A DNA stretch of 64,000 nt. It comes from Nitrosomonas sp. (GTDB lineage: Bacteria; Pseudomonadota; Gammaproteobacteria; Burkholderiales; Nitrosomonadaceae). Made by a program: the position numbers and the translations under genes. How positions within the stretch are numbered: position 1 is the first letter of the stretch; each line of letters begins with the position of its first letter. Below the pieces are notes generated by a model, which saw only the letters and a program-made list of their open reading frames with translations, was not told where the DNA came from and searched no databases. Location of the stretch: contig NZ_JAIEME010000039.1 of NCBI RefSeq assembly GCF_019752415.1, forward strand, positions 5,241-69,240. The letters are read 5' to 3'. Below are positions 6,276 through 57,200 of this stretch, in pieces.

Positions 6276-6422
6276 TAACAGGCCGTTGAAAAACGTTTTT
6301 GAGGCAGCCGATGCAAGGCAAAAATAGGCGAAAAAGCGTAGTTTATGCTTAATAAATGAGCATTTTTAGCCTGTTTTTTAACACCGCAGCGGCAATGCAG
6401 ATAGTTTTTCAACGGCCTGCTA
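6276..6422. repeat. MITE-like palindromic element, family A, copy 1
   Basis: ~147 bp with terminal inverted repeats (T)A(A/G)CAGGCCGTTGAAAAAC ... GTTTTTCAACGGCCTG(C/T)TA and an internally self-complementary core (AAAAACAGGC...GCCTGTTTTT). Near-identical copies at 46851-46996 and 48246-48391. Confidence 0.8.
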
Positions 6423-6472
6423 AATATCGCAAAGTCTTTTTTCATGCATTCTTAGCAACAACGCGCCCAAGC

Positions 6473-27229: not shown

Positions 27230-27546
27230 CATTAGTGTCCGGCAATTTAGTTGAATAAATTCAGTTGATTATAATTCTCTGAGGTATTCACTTTCACCTC
27301 TTCATTTTTAACCAATTGATCGACAGGTGTTTTCTCGAAAAGAGTCAGGCTTAAAATCTGTAGAATTGTGTAAGCGAAGCTTCGGTATTGAGCTGCTTTT
27401 TCACGATGGCAACCAAGACATAAACCGATATGGCAATCCATATCTGCGTCTTGTGTTAACGGAATATCCGCTTGGCACGCCCATACCGTTACCCAATTGG
27501 TTGTTGCGCCACTACTGGGTAGTGCCCCATCTGTACCAACAACAAT
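27230..27546 (-). mobile_element. IS4-family IS fragment (one terminal IR plus transposase C-terminus)
   Basis: End CATTAGTGTCCGGCAATT. Encodes ..YTILQILSLTLFEKTPVDQLV..NYNQLNLFN. ~215 bp are highly similar to 48530-48745. Truncated by the next IS fragment. Confidence 0.7.
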
Positions 27547-44512: not shown

Positions 44513-45853
44513 ATGACCAACCGTATCCGATTTTATTTGCTGATTGTTGCGCTGTTATTGAATCAGGCAGCTTTCTCCCAGCACCTGGATGTCGAAGTCT
44601 GGGGAGAAGGCAATGCAGTATTTGCCGGGTACTGCCGCACGCCCGGTGTTGTCGGGTGTGACTTAGGTAAACTGGCACAAACGCTTGAATTACCTGCCGG
44701 AGCCTTACCTAAAGAATCTACAACAGGAAAGCTTATCTTTCTGGCCAATTTTAGAGATCTTCCCGGTGGGGATTTCCGAACCAAGAATCCGGGGTTTCAA
44801 TCAATTCAAAATGGTTTACTACCCAATGAACTGGTGAGTTATCGCGCACTTGGGGCGCTTAAATATTGGGATCCGGCGTTATCTTCGTGGGGGAATTCGC
44901 CTCACGGTATCCAAATCACCCTGTTCGGCGGACTCGAAGCCAGTGCCGAGGTACTCAACGATTTCTCGAAATGCGCTGGACAATTAGTATGTTTTAGTGA
45001 CGGTAGCTTTGGCATTGACGGCAGTACCATTTTCTCTGCTGAAGGCATTCTGGGCAATCCCGAATTGGTTGTGGACATTACCAACAATAATGGCATTTTA
45101 CACACCCATCTGAGCTTCTTTCTGGAAAATCAACAGGGAGAAATAGGCGGGCCTGTTGGTGCCTATTTGGTTGAAATGCAGCTTATTTCCAATGCACGTT
45201 TCTTTCCTTCAGAACCATTCCTGATTTTGTTTAATACCGGTTTGGATGAGGCAGCATTCGCTGCAGCCTTAGTAGCGCTCGCTGGCAAACCATCGGACAT
45301 TGATCCGGATCCGCCACGACCAATACTCCCTGTGTCAATTCCCGGCGATGTGGATTTAGACAGTGATGTGGATCGAATCGATGTGGCATTGATTCTATTA
45401 GCTGCCCAAAACAATGAACCGGTTAACCCAGGCAATGCCATGCTTGACGTCAATCGCGATGGTGTCATTGATCGTTCCGATGCTTCTCTGGCTAAAGACT
45501 TATGCACACTCCGGCTGTGCAATATCCCGATTATAGCGCCCGCCACTGTATTGAATGTGGCAGCGGTCTACGACCAGAATACCGGCATATTGAATCTGAA
45601 CGATATCCAGGCAAGCAATCAGCATTATCGCGCGCAATTGCAGCTAAAAGATGAAAATATATTTGTGCTCAATACGGTACAAATCGACAAACCCCGCTAC
45701 GCCATACCGGTTCGGTATGACATTGAAAGCGGAATTCTGGAAATCCCTTCAGTCTATACACACGGAAAGAATTTTAAAGCGACCTTGCGCAACATCGGAG
45801 ACGATAAATTCCGCTTGGAGCACTTAGAAGAAATTGGCGGGGTTTTTGAATAA
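44513..45853 (+). CDS. secreted protein with dockerin/EF-hand-like repeat, paralogous to the next gene
   Basis: 446 aa with a signal peptide. HTH motif (GILHTHLSF). GDVDLDSDVDRIDV..DVNRDGVIDRSD. C-terminal NFKATLRNIGDDKFRLEHLEEI. Confidence 0.55.
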   Translation: MTNRIRFYLLIVALLLNQAAFSQHLDVEVWGEGNAVFAGYCRTPGVVGCDLGKLAQTLELPAGALPKESTTGKLIFLANFRDLPGGDFRTKNPGFQSIQNGLLPNELVSYRALGALKYWDPALSSWGNSPHGIQITLFGGLEASAEVLNDFSKCAGQLVCFSDGSFGIDGSTIFSAEGILGNPELVVDITNNNGILHTHLSFFLENQQGEIGGPVGAYLVEMQLISNARFFPSEPFLILFNTGLDEAAFAAALVALAGKPSDIDPDPPRPILPVSIPGDVDLDSDVDRIDVALILLAAQNNEPVNPGNAMLDVNRDGVIDRSDASLAKDLCTLRLCNIPIIAPATVLNVAAVYDQNTGILNLNDIQASNQHYRAQLQLKDENIFVLNTVQIDKPRYAIPVRYDIESGILEIPSVYTHGKNFKATLRNIGDDKFRLEHLEEIGGVFE

Positions 45854-45951: not shown

Positions 45952-46734
45952 ATGCTAAAGAAAATTATTAACCTGACTATGACGTTCGTTCTTAGCTTAT
46001 TTTCCATATCTGCTATTGCGCAAGCACACTCGCATGAAGGCGACATCCAACCGTGGAAAATTGGCGCGGAAATATTTCTTAACAGCAATTTGTTCGAACC
46101 GGACTTTGGCGACATCAGCGGAGGACTCTACGCTACGGACGAACCTGGTTTTGATGTCAATATCGCACAAGGAGCATTCACCCCAGGGAATTGGCTGCGT
46201 TTCCAGCCTGTCGGTCAACTGCTATTCTGGAATGGCACTGAATGGAGCACGACTGTGCCAAACGAAGAGCGAATTGAAATTACCGACGCGCTTGGCACTG
46301 CTATTTCGTATCGAACCAGCGGTGTGAGTGATACGGCAGCGGTTATCGGTGAAATTGGCAGCGATGGGGGACTGCACGAACACCTGGAAATGTCTATTTT
46401 TGATGCATCGAATGCATTAGGCGGCAGTGTCGGCGCCTATCGCATTCAACTCAAATTATTCGAATCTAAAGCGAATAGCGATACTTCTGTTTCTATCGCG
46501 ACATCCCCGATTACAATAGTTTTTAATCGTGGTCTTGAACACGACAAATTTGAACTGGCAGTTTCAGCAGCTGCAGATCTTAACGAAAACTCTGTTTTTG
46601 TAGCTGAAACTGGAACATTGGACATCCAGCAAGTAAAGGCATTGGGAACATACTATAAAGTCAAACTTAGACATATCGGTGATGATAAATTTCAACTAAT
46701 TGATGCGCAAGAAATTCCAAGAACGGAAAAATGA
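45952..46734 (+). CDS. secreted protein, paralog of 44513-45853
   Basis: 260 aa. Signal peptide ..AIAQA followed by HSHEGD. HEH motif (GGLHEHLEM). GGSVGAYRIQLKL aligns with GGPVGAYLVEMQL. C-terminal YYKVKLRHIGDDKFQLIDAQEI. Confidence 0.55.
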   Translation: MLKKIINLTMTFVLSLFSISAIAQAHSHEGDIQPWKIGAEIFLNSNLFEPDFGDISGGLYATDEPGFDVNIAQGAFTPGNWLRFQPVGQLLFWNGTEWSTTVPNEERIEITDALGTAISYRTSGVSDTAAVIGEIGSDGGLHEHLEMSIFDASNALGGSVGAYRIQLKLFESKANSDTSVSIATSPITIVFNRGLEHDKFELAVSAAADLNENSVFVAETGTLDIQQVKALGTYYKVKLRHIGDDKFQLIDAQEIPRTEK

Positions 46735-46850
46735 AACAGTAGTTTTCAGGAAGTAATGAGTTTCTCTGGCTATTCTGTTGAAACCGGTTAAATCGCTCCG
46801 TCAAGTACTCTGCAGTCTTTGTGTTATTTGAAGCTTGGAAATATTTCCTT

Positions 46851-46996
46851 TAGCAGGCCGTTGAAAAACGTTTTCGAGGCAGCCGATGCAAGGCAAAAAC
46901 AGGCGAAAAAGCGCAGTTTATGCTTAATAAATGAGCATTTTTAGTCTGTTTTTAACACCGTAGCGGCAACGCAGATAGTTTTTCAATGGCCTGTTA
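46851..46996. repeat. MITE-like element family A, copy 2
   Basis: TAGCAGGCCGTTGAAAAACG...TTTTTCAATGGCCTGTTA. Anchored on the stop at 46734. Confidence 0.8.
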
Positions 46997-47069
46997 GATG
47001 CAACCCAAAGACGTACGCGCATTCATTAATGACGTTGTTAGCTTTGTGCTTGATAGAGATTGATTTTAA

Positions 47070-47276
47070 TAATCGGGAAATCTACTGTAGTTCTCATGAT
47101 ATCTCCTCATGCAGTACATATCAGTGTGGGAAATTATGCATAAATGATTAAGGTTATCGTTTGGATTAAGATAACTGAGCGGAATGTTTTTTGAAGAATC
47201 GGGCATTTCTCAATTATCTCGGCCACTAATGCCGCAAGAACAGTTATTCTTGGTTATAGATCTGGCCCCTTGATTC
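47070..47276. repeat. 207-bp direct repeat, copy A (includes the last 23 nt of ylqF)
   Basis: Near-identical to 49043-49250, with a few substitutions and one indel. Confidence 0.9.
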
Positions 47277-48174: not shown

Positions 48175-48245
48175 TCGTAATCAATTATCTAACTAAAGTC
48201 GTATTTTACTCTTCGCTGACTGATACGTCATGCTTGTCGTTACTT

Positions 48246-48391
48246 TAGCAGGCCGTTGAAAAACGTTTTCGAGGCAGCCGATGCAAGGCAAAAACAGGCG
48301 AAAAAGCGCAGTTTATGCTTAATAAATGAGCATTTTGAGCCTGTTTTTAACACCGCAGCGGCAACGTAGATAGTTTTTCAACGGCCTGTTA
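48246..48391. repeat. MITE-like element family A, copy 3
   Basis: Anchored on ORF 48319. Same orientation as copy 2, so ylqF is bracketed by two copies. Confidence 0.8.
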
Positions 48392-48512
48392 GAGTACATA
48401 TAAAATCCATGTACATTCAATATGCTAAGTTTGGCGCGTTCGCAACCCCCTCTTTCGATCAGCAGATAGTTGCTTCTCAATTGACCTTCCCGCCTATTAA
48501 TATATCTATTTC

Positions 48513-49042
48513 CATTAGTGTCCGGCAATTCAGTTGAATAAATTCAGTTGATTATAACTTTCTGGCGTATCCATTAGCACCTCGGTATTTTTAACCAATT
48601 GATCAATAGGTTTTTTCTCGAAAAGAGTCAGGCTTAAAATCTGTAGAATTGTTAAAGCGAGGCTTCGGTATTGAGCCGCTTTTTCACAATGGCAACCAAG
48701 ACATAAACCGATATGGCAATCCATATCTGCGTTTTGACTGCGTTCTCAGTAGTTCCGTAGAAACGCTGGGCCATGCACAGAAACTGATCGAGATGCGAAA
48801 AAGTCTTGGTGGGATATTTGAGGGGTAGCGTTGCACACAGCGACAGAATGTGTGAAGGGGTAAATGCTCCATGAGTTGTGCGAATACCAATTTGTCTGAA
48901 TTCATAATGAGAAACCACGTAGAGAAACTTCCAGTTTCGCAAAAAATTCACTTCCAAATCGGTGACACCCAAAAACATACTATTTGATTCTACAGATCAA
49001 TCGCTTATACAATCATCCTGGTTAAATTGCCGGACACTACTG
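48513..49042 (-). mobile_element. internally deleted IS4-family element (both terminal IRs retained)
   Basis: CATTAGTGTCCGGCAATT at 48513-48530 and its inverted partner AATTGCCGGACACTACTG at 49025-49042. Only the C-terminal transposase part is present (..FYGTTENAVKTQIWIAISVYVLVAIVKKRL.. then, frameshifted, ..LTILQILSLTLFEKKPIDQLV..NQLNLFN). Confidence 0.75.
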
Positions 49043-49250
49043 TAATCGGGTAAATCTACTGTAGTTCTCATGATGTCTCCTCATGCGGTACATATCAGTG
49101 TGGGAAATTATGCATAAATGATTAAGGTTATCGTTTGGATTAAGATAACTGAGCGGAATGTTTTTTGAAGAATCGGGCATTTCTCAATTATCGCGGCCAC
49201 TAATGCCGCAAGAACAATTATTCTTGGTTTTAGACCTGGCCCCTTGATTC
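49043..49250. repeat. direct repeat copy B, supplying the 3' end and stop codon of the HNH-NACHT gene
   Basis: Starts exactly at the IS end and stops exactly where the GC-rich DNA begins. Confidence 0.9.
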
Positions 49251-52200
49251 CTTTCACTCACATCCTGGGTAGGCATCATGACCGGCCATCGCTTGCCCGA
49301 TGCCAGATCAGGATGGCGCGGTTCGGAATCCGGCGTGCCATATTCGTCCCTGATCTCATCGATCTGATTCAAGCAACGCGAGGCGGCGTCCGTGGGGCTG
49401 TTGACCATCGTCATAGCGAGCAGTTCCCGTCGCAATTTACCGGCGGGAACGGGAACGATGTTGTATGCGCCTTTCCAGCTCTCGGAAGGAACGTGTTCAG
49501 TCACGACGTTCTCGATCGTGCGCCGCGAGATGAAAGAGAGATTTTTCTCGATCTCGATCTTGACGAGCAGCAGCAAACCATCCACATCGGGGTTTTCAGC
49601 GACGGCTTGCGCAAGCAACGCGAGACCGGGCTTCGTAGCGCCGACTCTTAGGATCTGATAGACGTGCGCACGCAGCTCGGGATGTTCACCTAGCAAACCA
49701 CCGAGTTGGCGCGCCATATGCCAGCGATCCGTTCCATTGGCAGCGAACGCACCGTTCGCTGCCAAATCCACAAATCGCCGCGCGGCTGACAGCGTGCCTC
49801 GGCGTATGGCGGCGTCGCGCCAGGCGTGGCTCGCGTAGAGTTTCGGATCGGCTTCCGCGAGCTGAAACAGGACGTTTTCGGCGGCGTCGCCAGGCGCCGT
49901 TCCGAAACCGGCGATCATTTCTTCCAAGCGGTCCACCCTGCGTTGATCGTCTGGCAAACCGCGTACGACAGCGAACGCTTCGGCAGGAGGGTTGGCGAAA
50001 GGCAGCAGGCGCAGCCATTCCTTCAACTCATAGCCGTTCTCCGACAAAATCCAGTTCTGCGCCTTAGCCGCCTTGAATACCTCCGCGAGGCCGTTCTTGA
50101 CCAGCTCGATGTCGATGCTTTCGCCCGAGAGGATGAGGTTTTGAAGGAGGGCGGCGCGCGCACCGCGCGGGGCCAGTGAAATGAGCTTTTGAATCGTGGC
50201 GTCGCGTTGGCCGTGCGGCAGTCGCGCGGCGACGACGCCGAGGGCAACGGCGTGCTTCTTCTGCTCCTCTGTCGCTCCATCGGCAATCAACGGCTCAATC
50301 GAGTTAAAAATGGCGTCGGCCTCCGCCGACGTTACGGCAGGATCTCTGGCGCGTACATCACGCTTCTCCTCAACACGCGAGAAATCTAATCCTCTCCGAA
50401 AGCGTTCCCCATCGCTGGGTTCATTCGCGGCGGTCCATTGCGTGGCCAATACGAGAGCGGCGAGTTGCCCAAAATGCTCGTCGTGCAGATATTCACGCAT
50501 CAACCTAGCGGTCTCCTCTGCGTTGATTGCGAGAAACGCGCGCTGATACTCGTGTGTGTGTAGAGTCCCGGCTTCGTTCGTCGCTCTTCCTTGACGCCAG
50601 CCTGTCGCCTTTGCTTCTTCCCTGAAGGCGCGGTAGCGGCGCAGATCTTCATCCAGCAACCGCTTGAGCAATCGCAGCAAGCCCACCGATGGGACGCGGC
50701 TAGCGACCCTTGCTATCGAAGCCAATTGCGAACGCGTCGCATCGCCTGAGGCGAGCATCCGGTTGCCCCAGTCTTCCGCAATGGCGCTGATTGTGGAGAC
50801 TGAATCGGCGTCGAAAGGCCTGCCGCGATCGTTCTTGTCGTCCGGGTGGCGAGAGATCAGCTCCGCCAACTCCGCCATTTCTTCGTTCCCCGCCTTTGCG
50901 GAGCTCTCACGGACAGCGGCTACCAGACTTGCGCCCGGCGTATGCCCGATGCGGTCTAGCAAAGAATGATAGCGGTCACCTGCGGCTTCGTCGTATTTGC
51001 CGTTCGGGTCGCGAAGATGCTTCTTCACTTCGAGAATAACTTCGATCATGCGGCCAACAGCTTGGGGTCCTAGCACTGACGCGGCAGCTTCAGCGCGATC
51101 ATCGTGGCGGCTAGTCTCAGAAAGTGCGGCCTCAAGAAGCGTGTCGTCCTCCAGACTAAAACCCGCAGAGGCTAGAAGATCATCTGCGCCGTAGAACAAC
51201 GTGCGGTCCGCGCGCGCACGCTGCAGGAGACCATCGGCGATAGCGCGTGAGTAGCGAGTCTGCGCCGCATAGAGGAGCTGGACTTCCGCATCCCGCTTTT
51301 TATCGATCTCCATTTCGGCGACGATCGCGGTCAGCTCGACGCTCAAGTCTTCGTCTCCTCGCGCATGGATGATCGCACGTAGCCGATCGTAAGCCGAAGC
51401 GCCTTGCTTCCGCCGACGTTCGTGCGCCGCCTCAATTCCTTTCTTGACGTGTTCGTCCGTCGCTTCGTCGACGAGGCCTCTGCGGGCCACCAAGTCGAAA
51501 GTCATTTCGTCCGCGCCGCGCAGCACCTCAGCGACATGGCGGTCCGCGCGGCGAAACGCAAGCGCATCAATCACCGTCGCCTTCACCTCGGGGTCGGGAT
51601 CATCTTTCGTAATGGCGGCCGCGAGGTCGAGGCCATCCATGCCGCTGTTTGATGCGATCTCGGCCAGGACGCTTTTCCGAACATCCGGCGATAATGCGGC
51701 AATACGCTTGGCCGCATCACTTCCCAGGAGGGATGGCCTGAATTGCCTGCCAGCTCGGAGTGCAGAGAGATTCACTTGGTTGTTCTCGTGCGTGATGAGC
51801 GGCCAGACTTGATTGAAAAATTCTGGGCGGCCTGAGGAAATCATGAAGCCTAGAGCACGATCGACTTTCCCAGGGGTATGCCACCGCCTAATAAGCCCTT
51901 GAATGGTCGAGCTAACACGTGCCCAAATGGCCTCAGTCGAACGGAAGATCATCTCGGCGGCGAGAATCGGGTCGACCTCGTACGCGGCAAGAATGGCCGC
52001 ACCGCAGGCTTCCTGCTGTCTTATGTCTCCGCGTGCCAGCCGCTCACACGCGAAGAGAATGGATTCTTCCCATGTCGGTTGATTCAGAACATCCGCCTTC
52101 AGCTTATTGTGGGAGGCAGGATCGCCGATACTCGCCATCATCAGGCGCTCGACGAAGTACGACGCATACCATTCCTGAAATTGCTGGTGCTGAAACGAAT

Positions 52201-53611
52201 AGCCTGCGGGATCGCCGATGCGCAGGAGCATGTGGTGGCTGACCAGCGACTCCAGCACCGTGTTGGGCTGAGGCTTTTCCGTGATCTGCCCTTCCGCCAC
52301 GAGCGCGCCCTCCGTTTCCGAGATGGATTTACGGGCGACAGCCTCTGGGACCGTCGTGTTAGCTGCGCGGGTGGCAATCGCCGCGAGGTCTTCGAGGAAT
52401 CGCTGATGTAAACTGTGCGTTACTTCCGCGAGTGTTTCAGCGCGCCGCGCGTCTTCTTCATGCATCGCAACGAAACGGCGCAGGACTTCTTCCTTCGTAG
52501 TCGGAAAAGGCGCGTCCTCGGGAAGAGTCAGCAGCGCCCTCAAGTAGAGCGGAATCGTGACAAGCTCTCGCACACCAGTCGTTCGCCAAGCCTGATCGAG
52601 CATGCGCACGCCCGCGTCACCACGCAGGGCCTTGGCGATATCAAACTGTTGCGTTTGACTGAGTGGGAGGAGATTGATGCGCGTGCCATCGACCGGTACA
52701 TCGAGCGCCTGCTTGCGCGTTGAGATCAGCAAGCTGAGTTCCGGCGACTCTGCTTGGAGGCGTGCGACTTGAACCGCTAAACGTTTACGCGACGCAGCAT
52801 CGAGCTCGTTCCAGCCGTCGAGCAGCAGGATTACGCCAGGCTTCGCCGCCACGGTGCGCAAGTCGTCTTCCGAGATTCCCCGAAACGCAGGGCGCTTCAA
52901 AACGGATTCGAGAAGCGCCACGCCGTCCGTGGACCAATCGTTGAGCTGGACGACGATTGGTGATCCATTTCCGTTAGCCAAGATCGCTTCTGCAATTTGG
53001 AACAGCGTCGTGGTCTTGCCCATTCCGGGCGGAGCGACAAGGATCAGATCATCGAGCGTGGTGAGCACGGCCGCCAGCGCTGACGTGCTCACGGAATCGC
53101 CCAAGCCGTCCACTTCGAGAGTCAGAGGAATGTGAGTGGACGGCCATTTGTCTAGACGGCGGAAAACCTCAAGATCGGCCGCAGTGGCTGCGCGAAGGCG
53201 CGCGCTTAACTCGCCTTCGGTGGGTGCTTTGACCGCTAGGCCTTGGCGCGCATCATTATGGACAACGCGCTGCCACGAATCCTTTTGCGCCTGCGCCTTC
53301 CACTCGTGGAGCAGTTCGACGGTGAACATCGAGTCCTTGGCGTCTACGGCTGTGCCGTGGTTCCGGCACATCCAGATGCCATTGTCCGGCGAGCTGCGCT
53401 GCGCAGGTGTTTGATTCGGATCGTAGCGGGGGCCGCCAGGTGCAGCGGCGCAAATGTGCGAAGCCGTGCCAATATTGATTTCGCCGTCGCCGTCCGAGTT
53501 GGAACCGATCGTCTCCTGGCGGCACGACGGATTAGAGCAACGCCAGCCAGCGCGCTTTGCGATCTGGAGCTTTGTTTTAGGTGAGAAATTGTCCCGGTTG
53601 TTCTTTGCCAT
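49184..53611 (-). CDS. NLR-like STAND protein: N-terminal HNH nuclease, NACHT NTPase, long helical (HEAT/ARM-like) repeat region; candidate anti-phage defence gene
   Basis: 1475 aa. HNH-like CSNPSC..ASHICAA..GGPRY..NGIWMCRNHGTAVD (aa ~25-90). Walker A LVAPPGMGKTT (aa 191-201). Walker B ILLLDGWNELD (aa 261-271). An A/L/R-rich repeat region of ~1100 aa. Strongly GC-rich relative to its flanks. Confidence 0.8.
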   Translation of the reverse strand: MAKNNRDNFSPKTKLQIAKRAGWRCSNPSCRQETIGSNSDGDGEINIGTASHICAAAPGGPRYDPNQTPAQRSSPDNGIWMCRNHGTAVDAKDSMFTVELLHEWKAQAQKDSWQRVVHNDARQGLAVKAPTEGELSARLRAATAADLEVFRRLDKWPSTHIPLTLEVDGLGDSVSTSALAAVLTTLDDLILVAPPGMGKTTTLFQIAEAILANGNGSPIVVQLNDWSTDGVALLESVLKRPAFRGISEDDLRTVAAKPGVILLLDGWNELDAASRKRLAVQVARLQAESPELSLLISTRKQALDVPVDGTRINLLPLSQTQQFDIAKALRGDAGVRMLDQAWRTTGVRELVTIPLYLRALLTLPEDAPFPTTKEEVLRRFVAMHEEDARRAETLAEVTHSLHQRFLEDLAAIATRAANTTVPEAVARKSISETEGALVAEGQITEKPQPNTVLESLVSHHMLLRIGDPAGYSFQHQQFQEWYASYFVERLMMASIGDPASHNKLKADVLNQPTWEESILFACERLARGDIRQQEACGAAILAAYEVDPILAAEMIFRSTEAIWARVSSTIQGLIRRWHTPGKVDRALGFMISSGRPEFFNQVWPLITHENNQVNLSALRAGRQFRPSLLGSDAAKRIAALSPDVRKSVLAEIASNSGMDGLDLAAAITKDDPDPEVKATVIDALAFRRADRHVAEVLRGADEMTFDLVARRGLVDEATDEHVKKGIEAAHERRRKQGASAYDRLRAIIHARGDEDLSVELTAIVAEMEIDKKRDAEVQLLYAAQTRYSRAIADGLLQRARADRTLFYGADDLLASAGFSLEDDTLLEAALSETSRHDDRAEAAASVLGPQAVGRMIEVILEVKKHLRDPNGKYDEAAGDRYHSLLDRIGHTPGASLVAAVRESSAKAGNEEMAELAELISRHPDDKNDRGRPFDADSVSTISAIAEDWGNRMLASGDATRSQLASIARVASRVPSVGLLRLLKRLLDEDLRRYRAFREEAKATGWRQGRATNEAGTLHTHEYQRAFLAINAEETARLMREYLHDEHFGQLAALVLATQWTAANEPSDGERFRRGLDFSRVEEKRDVRARDPAVTSAEADAIFNSIEPLIADGATEEQKKHAVALGVVAARLPHGQRDATIQKLISLAPRGARAALLQNLILSGESIDIELVKNGLAEVFKAAKAQNWILSENGYELKEWLRLLPFANPPAEAFAVVRGLPDDQRRVDRLEEMIAGFGTAPGDAAENVLFQLAEADPKLYASHAWRDAAIRRGTLSAARRFVDLAANGAFAANGTDRWHMARQLGGLLGEHPELRAHVYQILRVGATKPGLALLAQAVAENPDVDGLLLLVKIEIEKNLSFISRRTIENVVTEHVPSESWKGAYNIVPVPAGKLRRELLAMTMVNSPTDAASRCLNQIDEIRDEYGTPDSEPRHPDLASGKRWPVMMPTQDVSERNQGARSKTKNNCSCGISGRDN

Positions 53612-53902
53612 TGGGAGTGGCTACACGGACTCGCCGCATGCTAACTGGAGTGTTACCGTATTCATTTTGGATCGCAAGCAGCAGTCATTGGTGCTGATCG
53701 TTTTCGTTGCTGGCATCGTGCCGCCTAAAATTAGACTTCAAGAATAACGTAATATAATGCATCAATTTAGCTTTCAATATTACTGACTTTGTTAGATCCA
53801 CAAGTCGATAGGGTACGGCAATCTATAGAAAAAATACCGCGGATTTTAAATCAAGAACCTTGGAGTTACTTAAGAAAGTACTTACCATGTGATTCGTTAT
53901 GA

Positions 53903-53995
53903 TCAGATTTGCCGGTAATTCTCTTGGTGAAGATTGCGGCGAGCGACCAGTACGATCAATTGCTCATCATACACTTCGCCCGTCATATGATAGGA
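53903..53995 (-). pseudogene. possible C-terminal remnant of a RelE/ParE-type toxin
   Basis: ..ISYHMTGEVYDEQLIVLVARRNLHQENY resembles the RelE/ParE C-terminus (..YRIIY.i.de..i.Vl.v.hR...Y). The expected N-terminal ~55 aa are missing and the frame overlaps the antitoxin end. Confidence 0.3.
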
Positions 53996-54212
53996 GATTA
54001 TGCTTTGCAGTTTTCCAATCCAGGATTGGGTCTGCTGGATCGTGCAAGACTTCCACGGCGCGAGAAGTATCTTCAAAATCTTCAAGATAATATTCAACAG
54101 CCTGTCTGATCACATCGGCACGCGTCCGATGCAATTTTGCTGCCGCCTCATCCAGCGCGGTGACCAGTTCATCCGGTAGTCTTGCCGATATTTGACGCAT
54201 TTCAGTTCTCAT
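53967..54212 (-). CDS. ribbon-helix-helix (CopG/RelB-type) antitoxin-like protein
   Basis: 81 aa. ISARLPDELVTALDEAAAKLHRTRADVIRQAVEYYLEDFED is a classic RHH N-terminal domain. Confidence 0.65.
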   Translation of the reverse strand: MRTEMRQISARLPDELVTALDEAAAKLHRTRADVIRQAVEYYLEDFEDTSRAVEVLHDPADPILDWKTAKHNLLSYDGRSV

Positions 54213-54235
54213 AGAGTAGTAGAAAAAGAGATACT

Positions 54236-57200
54236 TCAGTTATTAGTGTTCAACTTCTGAATCAATTCCTTAATCCGCATCACCCGCTTATTCACATCCT
54301 CAATCTTTACCTGAATTTTCAGTCGATCCGGGCCAGATAAAGAATATTCGCGGCTGCTTTGGATCAATTGGATGATTTTTAGCGGGTCGATCGGCGGGTT
54401 GGGGATGAATTGCACTTGGATGCTGTCGGCGCTGGCATCGATGCGTGTGATACCGAGTGGTTTGGCGGCGATGCGCAAACGGTGGCAGTCGAGCAATGCC
54501 CGGGTTGGGTTGGGTAGCAAGCCAAAGCGGTCGACCAATTCGCGTTGCATGTCGTCGAGCTGTTCGTCGTCGCAGCAATTGGCCATGCGTTTATACAGCA
54601 CCAAGCGTTCGTGAATGTCATGGCAATAATCTTCCGGCAATAAAGTCGGCACGTGTAGATTGATTTCTGTGGCAACGCCCAATGGGTGCTGCATATCGGG
54701 CTCTTTGCCTTGTTTTAAGGATTGGATGGCAGAATCCAGCATGGAGCTGTACAGACTGAAACCAATTTCCTGCATTTCTCCGCTTTGTGATTCGCTCAGT
54801 ACCGCACCAGCACCGCGAATTTCCAGATCGTGCATGGCAAGGTAAAACCCGGAACCGAGTTCTTCCATCGCTTGAATTGCTTCCAGGCGCTTTTTGGCTT
54901 GCGCGCCGAGCGCTTCTTCAGGTGGTGTCAGCAAATACGCATAAGCCTGATGATGCGAGCGGCCCACCCGGCCGCGTAGCTGATGCAATTGTGCCAGGCC
55001 GAAATTGTGCGCATTATTGATGAGGATGGTATTGGCGCTGGGAATGTCGATGCCGGTTTCAATGATGGTGGTGCATAACAGGATGTTGAAGCGTTGCTGG
55101 TAAAAATCCCGCATGACATGTTCCAAATCGCGTTCGCGCATTTGCCCGTGGGCAATATTGATGCGTGCCTCGGGTAGCAAACCGGATAGTTTTTCATACA
55201 TCAACTGAATGGTGCTGACTTCATTGTGCAGAAAATAGATTTGCCCGCCACGCTTCAGTTCGCGCAGACAAGCCTCGCGAATAATACCCATCGAGAGACT
55301 GCTGACAAAGGTGCGAATGGCAAGGAGGCGCTGTGGCGCGGTGGCAATGATGGAGAAATCGCGTAGCCCTTCCAGCGACATCGCCAATGTGCGTGGAATC
55401 GGCGTGGCGGTGAGTGTCAGCACATCGACTTCTGCGCGTAGTTTTTTTAATTCTTCCTTCTGCCGCACGCCAAAACGATGCTCTTCGTCAATAATGACCA
55501 AGCCCAGATTCTTGAAGTGAACGTCTTTCTGAATCAGTTTGTGCGTGCCGATAATAATGTCAATCTCGCCTTTGGCCAGACCCGCTAGCGCCAGCGTTTG
55601 TTCTTTGGCGGAGCGGAAGCGCGACAGTTCAGCAATTTTGACCGGCCATTGGTCGGCAATCAGGCTAAAGCGGTCGGAGAAATTCTGGAAATGTTGCTCA
55701 GCCAATAGCGTGGTCGGAACCAGGACAGCAACCTGTTTACCGTCGGCAACGGCAACAAAAGCGGCGCGCAGTGCCACTTCAGTCTTGCCGAATCCGACAT
55801 CGCCGCAAATGAGGCGATCCATCGGTTTCCCTGAGGTTAAATCTGCAATCACCGCTTTGATCGCCGCCGCTTGATCAGCAGTTTCCTCAAAACCGAATCC
55901 CTCGGCAAAAGCATCGTAATCATGCGGCCTAAGCGTAAAAGTATGGCCTTCGCGCGCTGCGCGCTGGGCATACAGATTCAGTAGCTCCGCCGCCGTGTCG
56001 CGCACTTGCTGCATGGCTTTGCGCTTGGCTTTATCCCATTGACCGCTGCCCAGCTTGTGCAGCGGTGCGGATTCCGGGGCAGCGCCGCTGTAACGGCCGA
56101 TCAAATACAGTTGTGAAACCGGCACGTAGAGCTTGTCGCCGCCCGCGTATTCCAGCGACAAAAATTCACTCAGCTCGCCCGGTTCGCCTTCCCCCACATC
56201 CATACTGACCAGCCCCAGATAGCGGCCAATGCCATGCTGCTCATGCACCACCGGATCGCCCGGTTTGATTTCCGACAGGTCACGCAGAATATTATCGGTC
56301 GAGGTAGTCTTGCGCGCTTCGCGTTCACGCCGCCCATAGACATGGGTCGAATACAGCTCACTTTCGGTGATAAACGCACGTTGCGCTGATTCCAGGATAA
56401 AACCGGTGTGCAGCGGTGCAACACTGAGCATGAAGGGCTGAGAACTGCTCAGAAATTGCGCGTAATCCTGACAACTGTCCGGATGCAAGCCATACTGATT
56501 CAGGTATTCCGCAATGAGTTCGCGCCGCCCCATACTTTCCGCCAGCAGCAAGATGCGTCCACCAGTTTGCGTGAAATGGGCGACAAACGCAGCGAGTTTT
56601 TCCAGCGGATTTTCCGCGTGGCGGTTGACTTGAACAGAGGGCAGCGGAGCAGTAGATTTTTTAGCCGCCAGCTTGAGATCTTGTCCATTGGATAGAATCT
56701 CAATGCGCGCATACGGTTTTAATTTGCCGAAGAAGCTATCGCTGGATAAAAATAATTCCTGCGGCGGCAATAGCGGACGGTCGCTATCACCGCGCAACAA
56801 TTGATAGCGCGATTGGGTGTCGCGCCAGAATTCGTCGATGATCGGACGGACATCCTGGTGCAGGCAAAGCAGCGTATTTTCCGGCAAGTAATCAAATAAC
56901 GTTGCCGTCTGTTCAAAAAACAGCGGCAAGTAATACTCGATACCGGCTGGTGTCAGACCTTTGCTGATATCTTTATAGATTTGTTTTTTGGATGGATCGC
57001 CCTCGAATTTCTCGCGAAAATTACCGCGGAAGCTGGTGCGCCCGGCCTCATCCAACGGAAATTCTCGCGCAGGGAGTAGGCGGATTTCGTTGACCGGATA
57101 AATGCTGCGTTGGGTGTCGACATCGAACGTGCGAATGGTGTCGATTTCGTTATCCAGTAAATCGATGCGATACGGCAGCGGGCTGCCCATCGGAAACAAA

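Follow-up and report, generated by a model that had tools for sequence, protein, structure and literature searches.

A horizontally acquired one-gene HNH-NACHT cassette in a Nitrosomonas genome encodes a probable bacterial NLR-related immune protein

What kind of protein is encoded by a very long gene of foreign composition in the genome of an ammonia oxidiser, how did the gene get there, and what might it do for its host? We addressed these questions for the gene at positions 49184-53611 (minus strand) of a 64,000-nucleotide (nt) stretch of Nitrosomonas sp. DNA (assembly GCF_019752415.1, contig NZ_JAIEME010000039.1, positions 5,241 to 69,240 of the forward strand), hereafter the window. An earlier note, made from the sequence letters and a list of open reading frames (ORFs), had described the gene product as a single-gene defence system that joins an HNH nuclease, a NACHT NTPase and a long run of helical repeats, in the manner of NLR (nucleotide-binding, leucine-rich repeat) or Avs proteins, and had left it to further work to decide whether this combination belongs to a characterised clade. 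Re-reading the minus strand recovered the same frame, a single unbroken ORF that starts with ATG and encodes 1475 aa; the features discussed below are listed in Table 1.

The motifs on which this description rested were followed through three alignments, comprising 69 relatives translated from reference genomes (15-78% overall identity), 75 database proteins (~40-84% identity over aa 1-640) and 35 family sequences. All of the quoted HNH, Walker A and Walker B strings were found at the residues given: CSNPSC spans C25 to C30, ASHICAA contains H52, and NGIWMCRNHGTAVD runs from N77 to D90, while DPDPEVKATVIDALAFRRADRH corresponds, as quoted, to aa 670-691. Residues invariant in the 75-sequence alignment include C25, C30, H52, N77, C82 and D90 in the HNH part, G196, G198, K199, the D265-G-W-N-E269 stretch and R299 in the NTPase (the last, in 'STR299', being a putative sensor-1 arginine), and F473-Q-x-x-x-F-x-E-W481 in the winged helix, with conservation of 90% or more at H475; the 35-sequence alignment has the whole FQHQQFQEW block invariant. 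Taken over the alignments, the functional residues stay unchanged in relatives of roughly 30-84% identity. Such family-wide conservation argues that the motifs are not chance strings.

The N-terminus of the protein is, as judged from profile matches, an HNH DNase of the Cap5/SPARHA type whose catalytic residues are intact. Three PADLOC models match it, namely PDC-M68A (1e-24), the CBASS effector endonuclease (3e-15) and SAVED_HNH (1e-14). When all PDB sequences were searched with a profile built from family aa 3-125, the only matches were Cap5/SPARHA-type HNH proteins: the SPARHA HNH-APAZ effector 9OM4 (E = 5e-17) and the Cap5 entries 7rwk, 8ysq, 7rwm and 8fm1 (E = 1e-9 to 2e-4). These matches support the view that the HNH signature marks a nuclease effector. 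The HNH domains of Cap5 and of the SPARHA effector are thus homologous to that of the window protein; Cap5 and SPARHA, however, work with a SAVED domain or an APAZ/Argonaute partner, whereas the window protein has neither and its control module would be the NACHT NTPase of the same chain. Cap5 and SPARHA HNH nucleases are switched on by oligomerisation, and HNH domains of this clade have been noted in passing as fused to NACHT/STAND modules (PMC12738770). We considered and rejected the possibility that the whole protein is a CBASS Cap5 effector, because the matches do not extend beyond aa ~4-116, a SAVED domain is lacking and the neighbourhood contains no cyclase gene. Taken alone, the HNH domain also finds matches of 48-49% identity in phage genes for 'lysogenic conversion' (AJ512680.1, P2-EC46; OM140653.1, a Yersinia phage) and of 57-58% identity on E. 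coli plasmids, and this effector module seems to be in wide circulation as part of other proteins.

For the central module, it was structure rather than profile scores that settled its identity. An AlphaFold2 (AF2) model of aa 1-640 (predicted local distance difference test score, pLDDT, 85.3) was compared with the PDB by Foldseek, and the top 23 matches were to NLRC4, NLRP3, NOD2, NAIP5 and NLRP7 (E = 2.6e-12 to 1.6e-6), at ~13-15% sequence identity for the best of them, NLRC4, NLRP3 and NOD2. Matches outside NACHT proteins (Cdc6/ORC, CED-4, Avs3, Apaf-1) start at ~6e-6 and are mostly ~1e-5 or weaker. In a profile search of the PDB NLRC4 was again best (E = 0.003), and its alignment shares both the Walker B variant DG[YW]NE and the motif FxHxxFQE[YW], with FQHQQFQEW aligned to NLRC4 'YKFFHKSFQEY' in a weak second stretch. 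The P-loop PPGMGKTT agrees with the NACHT form of Walker A, GxxGxGK[ST]. The NACHT signature after Walker B is D[GAS]hDE (Kibby et al., bioRxiv 10.1101/2022.07.19.500537); the window protein reads LLLD-G-W-N-E, with Asn at the first acidic position, which is compatible with the signature but not a literal match; the bona fide NACHT protein NLRC4 has the like variant (DGYNE). In the model, helices and two short strands occupy aa 449-473, with more helices behind them, in keeping with a winged-helix extension that carries a conserved His motif. Thus, according to the model, the central module is a true NACHT NTPase, and the NACHT/STAND P-loop module of the earlier note is borne out with NLR-type proteins as its nearest structural neighbours.

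The second half of the label 'NLR-like/Avs-like' did not hold. In Avs proteins an effector, a STAND NTPase and a helical-repeat sensor are combined such that the sensor binds conserved phage proteins and the cell is killed, and the window protein shares this tripartite logic with the Avs/AVAST proteins (Avs1-4 and later families). Their sensor, however, is built of TPR repeats whereas that of the window protein appears HEAT-like with an added NCAB2 domain, and the NTPase fold resembles NACHT NLRs (E = 2.6e-12) much more than it does Avs3 (E = 1.9e-5). Since, in addition, no PADLOC Avs/AVAST model matched at E <= 1, we rejected membership of the Avs1-5 families and regard the protein as one of the NACHT clade. 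It also differs from animal NLRs: these carry leucine-rich repeat sensors and CARD/PYD adaptors, where the window protein has a HEAT-like solenoid with NCAB2 and a nuclease as its direct effector.

The helical repeats of the earlier note were likewise examined by structure prediction. A model of aa 600-1475 (pLDDT 88.7, predicted TM-score 0.78) predicts, with confidence, an all-alpha, HEAT-like solenoid of ~45 helices. Foldseek matched it to karyopherins, CAND1 and condensin HEAT subunits at E ~1e-4 with TM-scores of 0.2-0.26, and the Pfam HEAT_2 match at aa 639-700 is sub-threshold, so that the resemblance is one of fold class only. The model ends in a small alpha/beta unit, overlooked in the earlier note, which Pfam identifies as NCAB2 (Table 1) and which contains a near-invariant EPRHPD...WP motif in the family alignments. 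The last ~27 residues are disordered and unconserved.

Searches for homologs placed this architecture in a large and dispersed family. Word-indexed searches returned more than 1300 clusters of homologs with a uniform architecture, and an exhaustive search with the HNH-less region gave 574 clusters (50% identity) at E <= 1e-30 and 1744 at E <= 1e-3. Among full-length representatives, an HNH domain was present in 95/105 and an NCAB2-like end in 103/105 (family hidden Markov model); the majority of the seeming exceptions are probably artefacts of gene-start calling. Its members are patchily spread over more than six phyla, among them Alpha-, Beta- and Gammaproteobacteria, Nitrospirota, Desulfobacterota, Myxococcota, Acidobacteriota and Binatia, and full-length copies reside on 9 sequenced plasmids, including conjugative and symbiotic ones such as p42d of Rhizobium etli CFN 42. 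The subfamily of the window copy (63-84% identical) occurs in Nitrospira, Gallionella and other Betaproteobacteria.

The p42d protein, WP_011053289.1, gave a tblastn match spanning query residues 3-1447 (E = 1e-159), and it is listed as a 'NACHT+NCAB2' member of NACHT clade 21 (Kibby et al. Table S1, bioRxiv 10.1101/2022.07.19.500537). End-to-end homology to this listed protein places the window protein, by sequence, in clade 21, which answers the question of a characterised clade. Other clade-21 entries in that table include Myxococcus virescens SDE61099.1 and Azotobacter chroococcum WP_157731458.1, and an M. virescens protein in our set (P0222) aligns with the window protein from end to end, HNH domain included, at 32% identity over 1442 aa. 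Clade-21 members are alike in length and layout (NACHT start at residue ~160-210, NCAB2 at ~1370-1460), yet the listed ones are only ~30% identical to the window protein. In the table the N-terminal ~200 aa are unannotated and the solenoid is undescribed, whereas here these regions are assigned as a Cap5/SPARHA-type HNH domain and a HEAT-like solenoid. The kind of protein was therefore already catalogued; the window member itself, and the assignment of its effector to the Cap5/SPARHA HNH type, are reported here for the first time. Full-text literature searches returned no papers for 'NCAB2' and no later functional work on the HNH-NACHT-HEAT-NCAB2 layout.

How the gene reached this genome can be read from its composition and from a sister genome. 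It is the most GC-rich ORF of the window, which has an overall GC of 0.44: its GC is 0.595 and its GC at third codon positions (GC3) 0.661, compared with means of 0.444 and 0.415 over the 34 remaining long ORFs (z = 3.3 and 3.2). In 300-nt intervals, GC is 0.55-0.64 inside the gene and ~0.39-0.41 in the adjacent flanks; the foreign composition claimed earlier is hence confirmed as a GC and GC3 outlier, while the figure of 63-68% G+C given for it represents a local maximum. The neighbours Mfd, YlqF and a histidine phosphatase fall in protein clusters named Nitrosomonas. Moreover, a contig of a Nitrosomonas metagenome-assembled genome (L168) encodes a YlqF that shows 100% identity across the aligned part (98% of the query) and has the same flanks, in the order His_Phos - TPR - Mfd - RHH ... 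insertion sequence (IS) remnant - YlqF. By blastn, the window and L168 are homologous over 59080-53756 (93.3%) and 49248-47187 (97.6%), and L168 holds 3.6 kb of unrelated DNA between these flanks. The limits of homology thus delimit a window-specific segment, 49249-53755, and the compositional switch points noted earlier (~49250 and ~53620-53740) agree with the breakpoints, which lie at 49248/49249 and ~53750-53756.

In the closest copies elsewhere (82% in Nitrospiraceae, 80% in Gallionella) DNA similarity is limited to 53650-49252, such that the exchanged unit is essentially the gene alone, and the right breakpoint is the point where the ORFs of relatives stop. The cassette interior has no mobility genes adjacent to the gene, and the locus is chromosomal. 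We conclude that this is a one-gene cassette, acquired horizontally in a variable slot between mfd-RHH and ylqF; the horizontal acquisition proposed earlier is in fact borne out more strongly than before, by the lack of the cassette in a near-identical Nitrosomonas genome. In other lineages the GC of the gene tracks that of the host (0.43-0.62), and the gene-flank mismatch of +0.15 seen here is the largest among the loci sampled, which points to a donor of ~57-60% GC and a rather recent arrival. A metagenome scan around 80 YlqF loci for an empty site met with loci that were too distant, with synteny only at ylqF. Taken jointly, we hold the assignments of domains, clade and cassette with high confidence.

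Whether the protein acts alone was assessed by clustering all flanking ORFs of 80 loci. No neighbour was universally conserved across them, which fits the proposal of a single-gene system, and the window copy and its nearest relatives indeed stand alone. In ~16 of the 80 loci, all from one subclade that is ~57-59% identical to the window protein, an upstream gene of ~1320 aa with weak matches to Cap4 nuclease and AAA_16/nSTAND5 overlaps the start of the HNH-NACHT gene (L023:2022-6002 and ~15 others, including L015, L024, L027, L028, L030, L031, L035, L043, L046, L061, L065 and L067). This pair may represent a paired nuclease-STAND arrangement, recalling paired NLRs. We rejected a conserved two-gene system for the window, as the upstream partner is restricted to those ~16 loci and is absent here and in the closest relatives. 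At a Desulfobulbaceae locus (L006:766-7915), a relative lies directly behind a 1018-aa gene for a CBASS-type endonuclease with nSTAND5, with PycTM (a Pycsar effector) and radical-SAM genes nearby, a defence-island-like context. Neighbours of other relatives include an integrase with small phage-like genes, ParE/PhD, Fic modules and helicase genes.

Table 1. Positions of the cassette, its predicted domains and motifs, and flanking features in the window.
Feature	Position	Strand	Residues and basis
HNH-NACHT ORF	49184..53611	-	1475 aa, HNH - NACHT - HEAT-like solenoid - NCAB2; full-length ~1450-aa homologs known
Predicted HNH (His-Me finger) nuclease domain, Cap5/SPARHA type	53261..53602	-	aa ~4-117; PADLOC and PDB profile matches
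HNH residues			Cys ligands C25, C30, C82 (+H85); catalytic H52, N77, D90; roles assigned by analogy
Predicted NACHT NTPase module (nucleotide-binding domain, helical domain, winged helix, following helices)	51812..53134	-	aa ~160-600; AF2 model and Foldseek
Walker A / P-loop LVAPPGMGKTT	53009..53041	-	aa 191-201; G196, G198, K199 invariant
Walker B ILLLDGWNELD	52799..52831	-	aa 261-271; D265-E269 invariant; aligned to NLRC4 'lllDGYNEf'
Winged-helix motif FQHQQFQEW	52169..52195	-	aa 473-481, includes conserved His475
All-alpha HEAT/ARM-like solenoid, presumed sensor	49532..51814	-	aa ~600-1360 (~750 aa); AF2 and Foldseek
NCAB2 domain (NACHT C-terminal alpha/beta 2)	49283..49519	-	aa 1365-1443; PF22726 E = 8.6e-29, 100.3 bits vs cut-off 27
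21-codon tail and stop	49184..49248	-	conservation 0.05; pLDDT <50; read-through into flank common to L168
Strain-specific cassette (~4.5 kb)	49249..53755	-	gene codons 1 to ~1454 and 144 bp upstream; blastn vs L168
21-bp motif ATCAAGGGGCCAGGTCTAAAA at right junction	49228..49248	-	near-copy of last 7 ylqF codons (47254-47274)
IS4-type element, internally deleted	48510..49045		21-nt inverted repeats; flank common to L168
Orphan ribbon-helix-helix (RHH)/CopG-family gene	53967..54212	-	Pfam RHH_1 E = 1.4e-10; immediately downstream of mfd; also in L168

By analogy with tested bacterial NACHT (bNACHT) and Avs proteins and with Cap5/SPARHA, the window protein is probably a stand-alone bNACHT immune protein that acts against phages by abortive infection. 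In an uninfected cell it would be an autoinhibited, nucleotide-bound monomer. Upon infection, the HEAT-like solenoid, the NCAB2 cap or both would recognise a protein of the phage or a change that the infection brings about in a host factor, and the NACHT module would bind or exchange NTP and then oligomerise, bringing the N-terminal HNH domains into active dimers or tetramers (dimers of dimers). These assemblies would cut DNA indiscriminately, such that phage replication would be stopped and the cell lost.

Bacterial NACHT proteins were previously found to be antiphage and to require the Walker A lysine (bioRxiv 10.1101/2022.07.19.500537). The genomics of the family are also of a defence type: the cassette is exchanged against another cargo in L168, its GC is an outlier, members are patchily spread and partly plasmid-borne, and toxin-antitoxin modules, an integrase, PycTM or other nuclease-STAND genes flank some relatives. 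The tested bNACHTs (01, 11, 12, 25, 32, 64 and others) are, like the window protein, single-gene proteins with an N-terminal effector, a NACHT switch and a C-terminal sensor. They belong, however, to other clades, with bNACHT01 in clade 14 (bioRxiv 10.1101/2022.07.19.500537) and bNACHT28 and bNACHT64 in clade 20 (Kibby Table S1); their effectors differ or are lacking, their C-termini are often short, and none is reported with HNH, a HEAT-like solenoid and NCAB2. Their triggers (perturbation of DnaJ, multiple phage proteins) are not transferable to the window protein.

Several observations weigh against the reading of the protein as an anti-phage bNACHT. At the level of domain models, a Pfam scan of the protein matched no HNH model, though PADLOC and the PDB profiles did, and Pfam NACHT (PF05729) reached 14.7 bits (16.5 with the isolated module) against a cut-off of 26.7. 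The NACHT profile match expected from the earlier note was thus not attained by the window protein itself; it holds for some of its relatives, since the homolog P0286 exceeds the cut-off (27.1 bits), several others have precomputed PF05729 matches, and NACHT is the commonest Pfam match in the family (25/35 members at E <= 0.01, below threshold). The shortfall looks like an issue of profile sensitivity and no evidence against the fold. None of the PADLOC system-level models matches the window protein, none of the clade-21 rows in Kibby et al. Table S1 is labelled as a tested bNACHT, and the searchable literature holds no report of a clade-21 member tried against phage. Variability of the solenoid/NCAB2 region exceeds that of NACHT only moderately (mean majority-residue frequency per column of 0.51-0.67, compared with 0.68-0.76 for NACHT), in contrast with the hypervariable C-termini described for bNACHT01. 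Neighbourhoods of relatives are not uniformly defence-like, one of them lying among plain metabolic genes. Finally, at the locus itself, close relatives end at ...MMPDPDMSETE while the window ORF is without its native stop and adds 21 foreign codons, and a promoter and terminator scan of 48900-54300 gave counts equal to the shuffled background, with no promoter-like site upstream that exceeds it.

Of the competing explanations, the one that survives best takes the switch-plus-nuclease to be aimed mainly at something other than phage, such as plasmids or integrative elements, or to serve competition among mobile elements, for example as an exclusion or stabilisation function of plasmids and islands. 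The full-length copies on conjugative and symbiotic plasmids, R. etli p42d included, would fit such a role, as would the relative beside an integrase and small phage-like genes, and SPARHA, which has the closest HNH domain, responds to plasmids as well as to phages (PMC12738770). Nevertheless, we consider it quite unlikely, given that a response to phage infection is seen in every bacterial NACHT and Avs protein that has been tested and that the window gene is chromosomal, with no mobility genes in the cassette.

A second explanation is that the protein is a STAND switch outside immunity, for example a regulator linked to stress or DNA damage, or a factor for programmed cell death that has nothing to do with invaders. 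Transcriptional regulators are known among bacterial STAND proteins, AfsR being one of them. The fairly conserved solenoid and NCAB2, with the near-invariant EPRHPD, would suit a constant cellular ligand, and some family loci occur in ordinary metabolic contexts. Non-immune NLR-type regulators in bacteria are also described in a preprint (bioRxiv 10.64898/2026.09.02.748808). In this protein, however, the output would be a nuclease with intact catalytic residues and not a DNA-binding domain, and the gene is missing from a near-identical sister genome and patchily spread, unlike housekeeping regulators. We regard a non-immune role as very unlikely. Least probable, and likewise very unlikely in our estimate, is an inactive relic, non-functional or unexpressed in this genome: the lost stop with its foreign tail, the lack of a promoter-like site above background and the decayed IS and repeat elements in neighbouring DNA are set against a 4.4-kb frame that is unbroken and keeps every invariant family residue, C-terminal tails that vary naturally in length across the family, and an unameliorated GC that suggests recent arrival and hence little time for decay.

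The locus provides a clean, delimited NLR-related example from a catalogued NACHT clade that comprises no fewer than 574 clusters (50% identity), and shows it as a one-gene cassette in exchange between near-identical genomes of an ammonia oxidiser, and it hints at defence-gene flow within nitrifying communities. The 4.5-kb unit with its native upstream DNA, together with the point mutants K199A and H52A, makes a compact test construct, and the gene bears on whether clade 21 is antiviral, on the ligand of the HEAT-like/NCAB2 region and on the control of an HNH nuclease by a NACHT oligomer. Current ideas are not overturned, and specialists will find no surprise here. More speculatively, the fairly conserved solenoid and NCAB2 sensor could monitor a ligand that stays constant, be it a host factor under guard or a phage protein of very high conservation, rather than perform hypervariable recognition; the output could consist of NACHT-templated, Cap5/SPARHA-like HNH tetramers or filaments, a 'nuclease resistosome'; and the mfd-RHH/ylqF slot, marked by the 21-bp motif derived from ylqF, may act as a hotspot of site-specific exchange where near-identical Nitrosomonas genomes may swap single defence cassettes from co-resident nitrifiers, for example Nitrospira. 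That clade 21 should form a mechanistic type of its own among bacterial NLRs, in sensor, output and slot jointly, we consider rather unlikely.

The flanks of the cassette carry several repeats. ATCAAGGGGCCAGGTCTAAAA has exactly 2 matches in the window, where 0 are expected by chance, and shows a like pattern in L168, with copies at the equivalent places and a degenerate extra copy at the end of that genome's own cassette. It heads a 208-bp direct repeat (49043-49250 and 47070-47276, 96.6% identical) that carries the ylqF 3' end and abuts the right junction of the cassette. This repeat might serve as an att-like core for recombination, or be left over from a duplication of ylqF. The earlier note had also remarked on an IS fragment and a toxin-antitoxin remnant beside the gene; both do adjoin it, but both lie in flank DNA common to L168 and hence outside the acquired unit. 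The RHH gene (53967-54212) is followed by no toxin gene, and, being kept in the sister genome, it is a flank gene and not a remnant brought by the cassette. In L168 the ORF equivalent to the IS element (125 aa) has a DUF4372 N-terminus (E = 1.6e-11) fused to a transposase C-terminal tail. A second partial IS4-type copy (90.6%) lies at 27230-27453, and the public draft contig with the HNH-NACHT gene terminates close to an IS4-type repeat. Another repeated element, of ~150 bp, occurs at 6276-6424, 46845-46998 and 48240-48396 in copies that are 92-96% identical, with an internal inverted repeat (48241-48264 and 48373-48396), and is also found in the sister genome; it looks like a repetitive extragenic palindromic (REP) or miniature inverted-repeat transposable (MITE) element.

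The cargo that occupies the same slot in the sister genome (L168:5307-8924; GC 0.55-0.60) encodes a split VWA protein, a PP2C_2 phosphatase and a kinase-like protein, the last with weak PADLOC matches to PD-T4-6. A TerY-P system, suggested by this gene content, was dropped, as PADLOC did not confirm it and gave the weak PD-T4-6 matches only. Several of the cargo frames look broken, which may reflect decay or long-read sequencing errors. The 849-kb contig that holds this slot also carries a 34%-identical member of the HNH-NACHT family (L085); this paralog is not in the mfd-ylqF slot and lies at a different locus, beside a DEAD-box helicase gene. Elsewhere in the window, two adjacent plus-strand ORFs downstream of a TonB-dependent receptor (44513-45853 and 45952-46734) share a similar C-terminal motif, ...K[AV][TK]LR[NH]IGDDKF[RQ]L..., suggesting that they encode paralogous secreted proteins.

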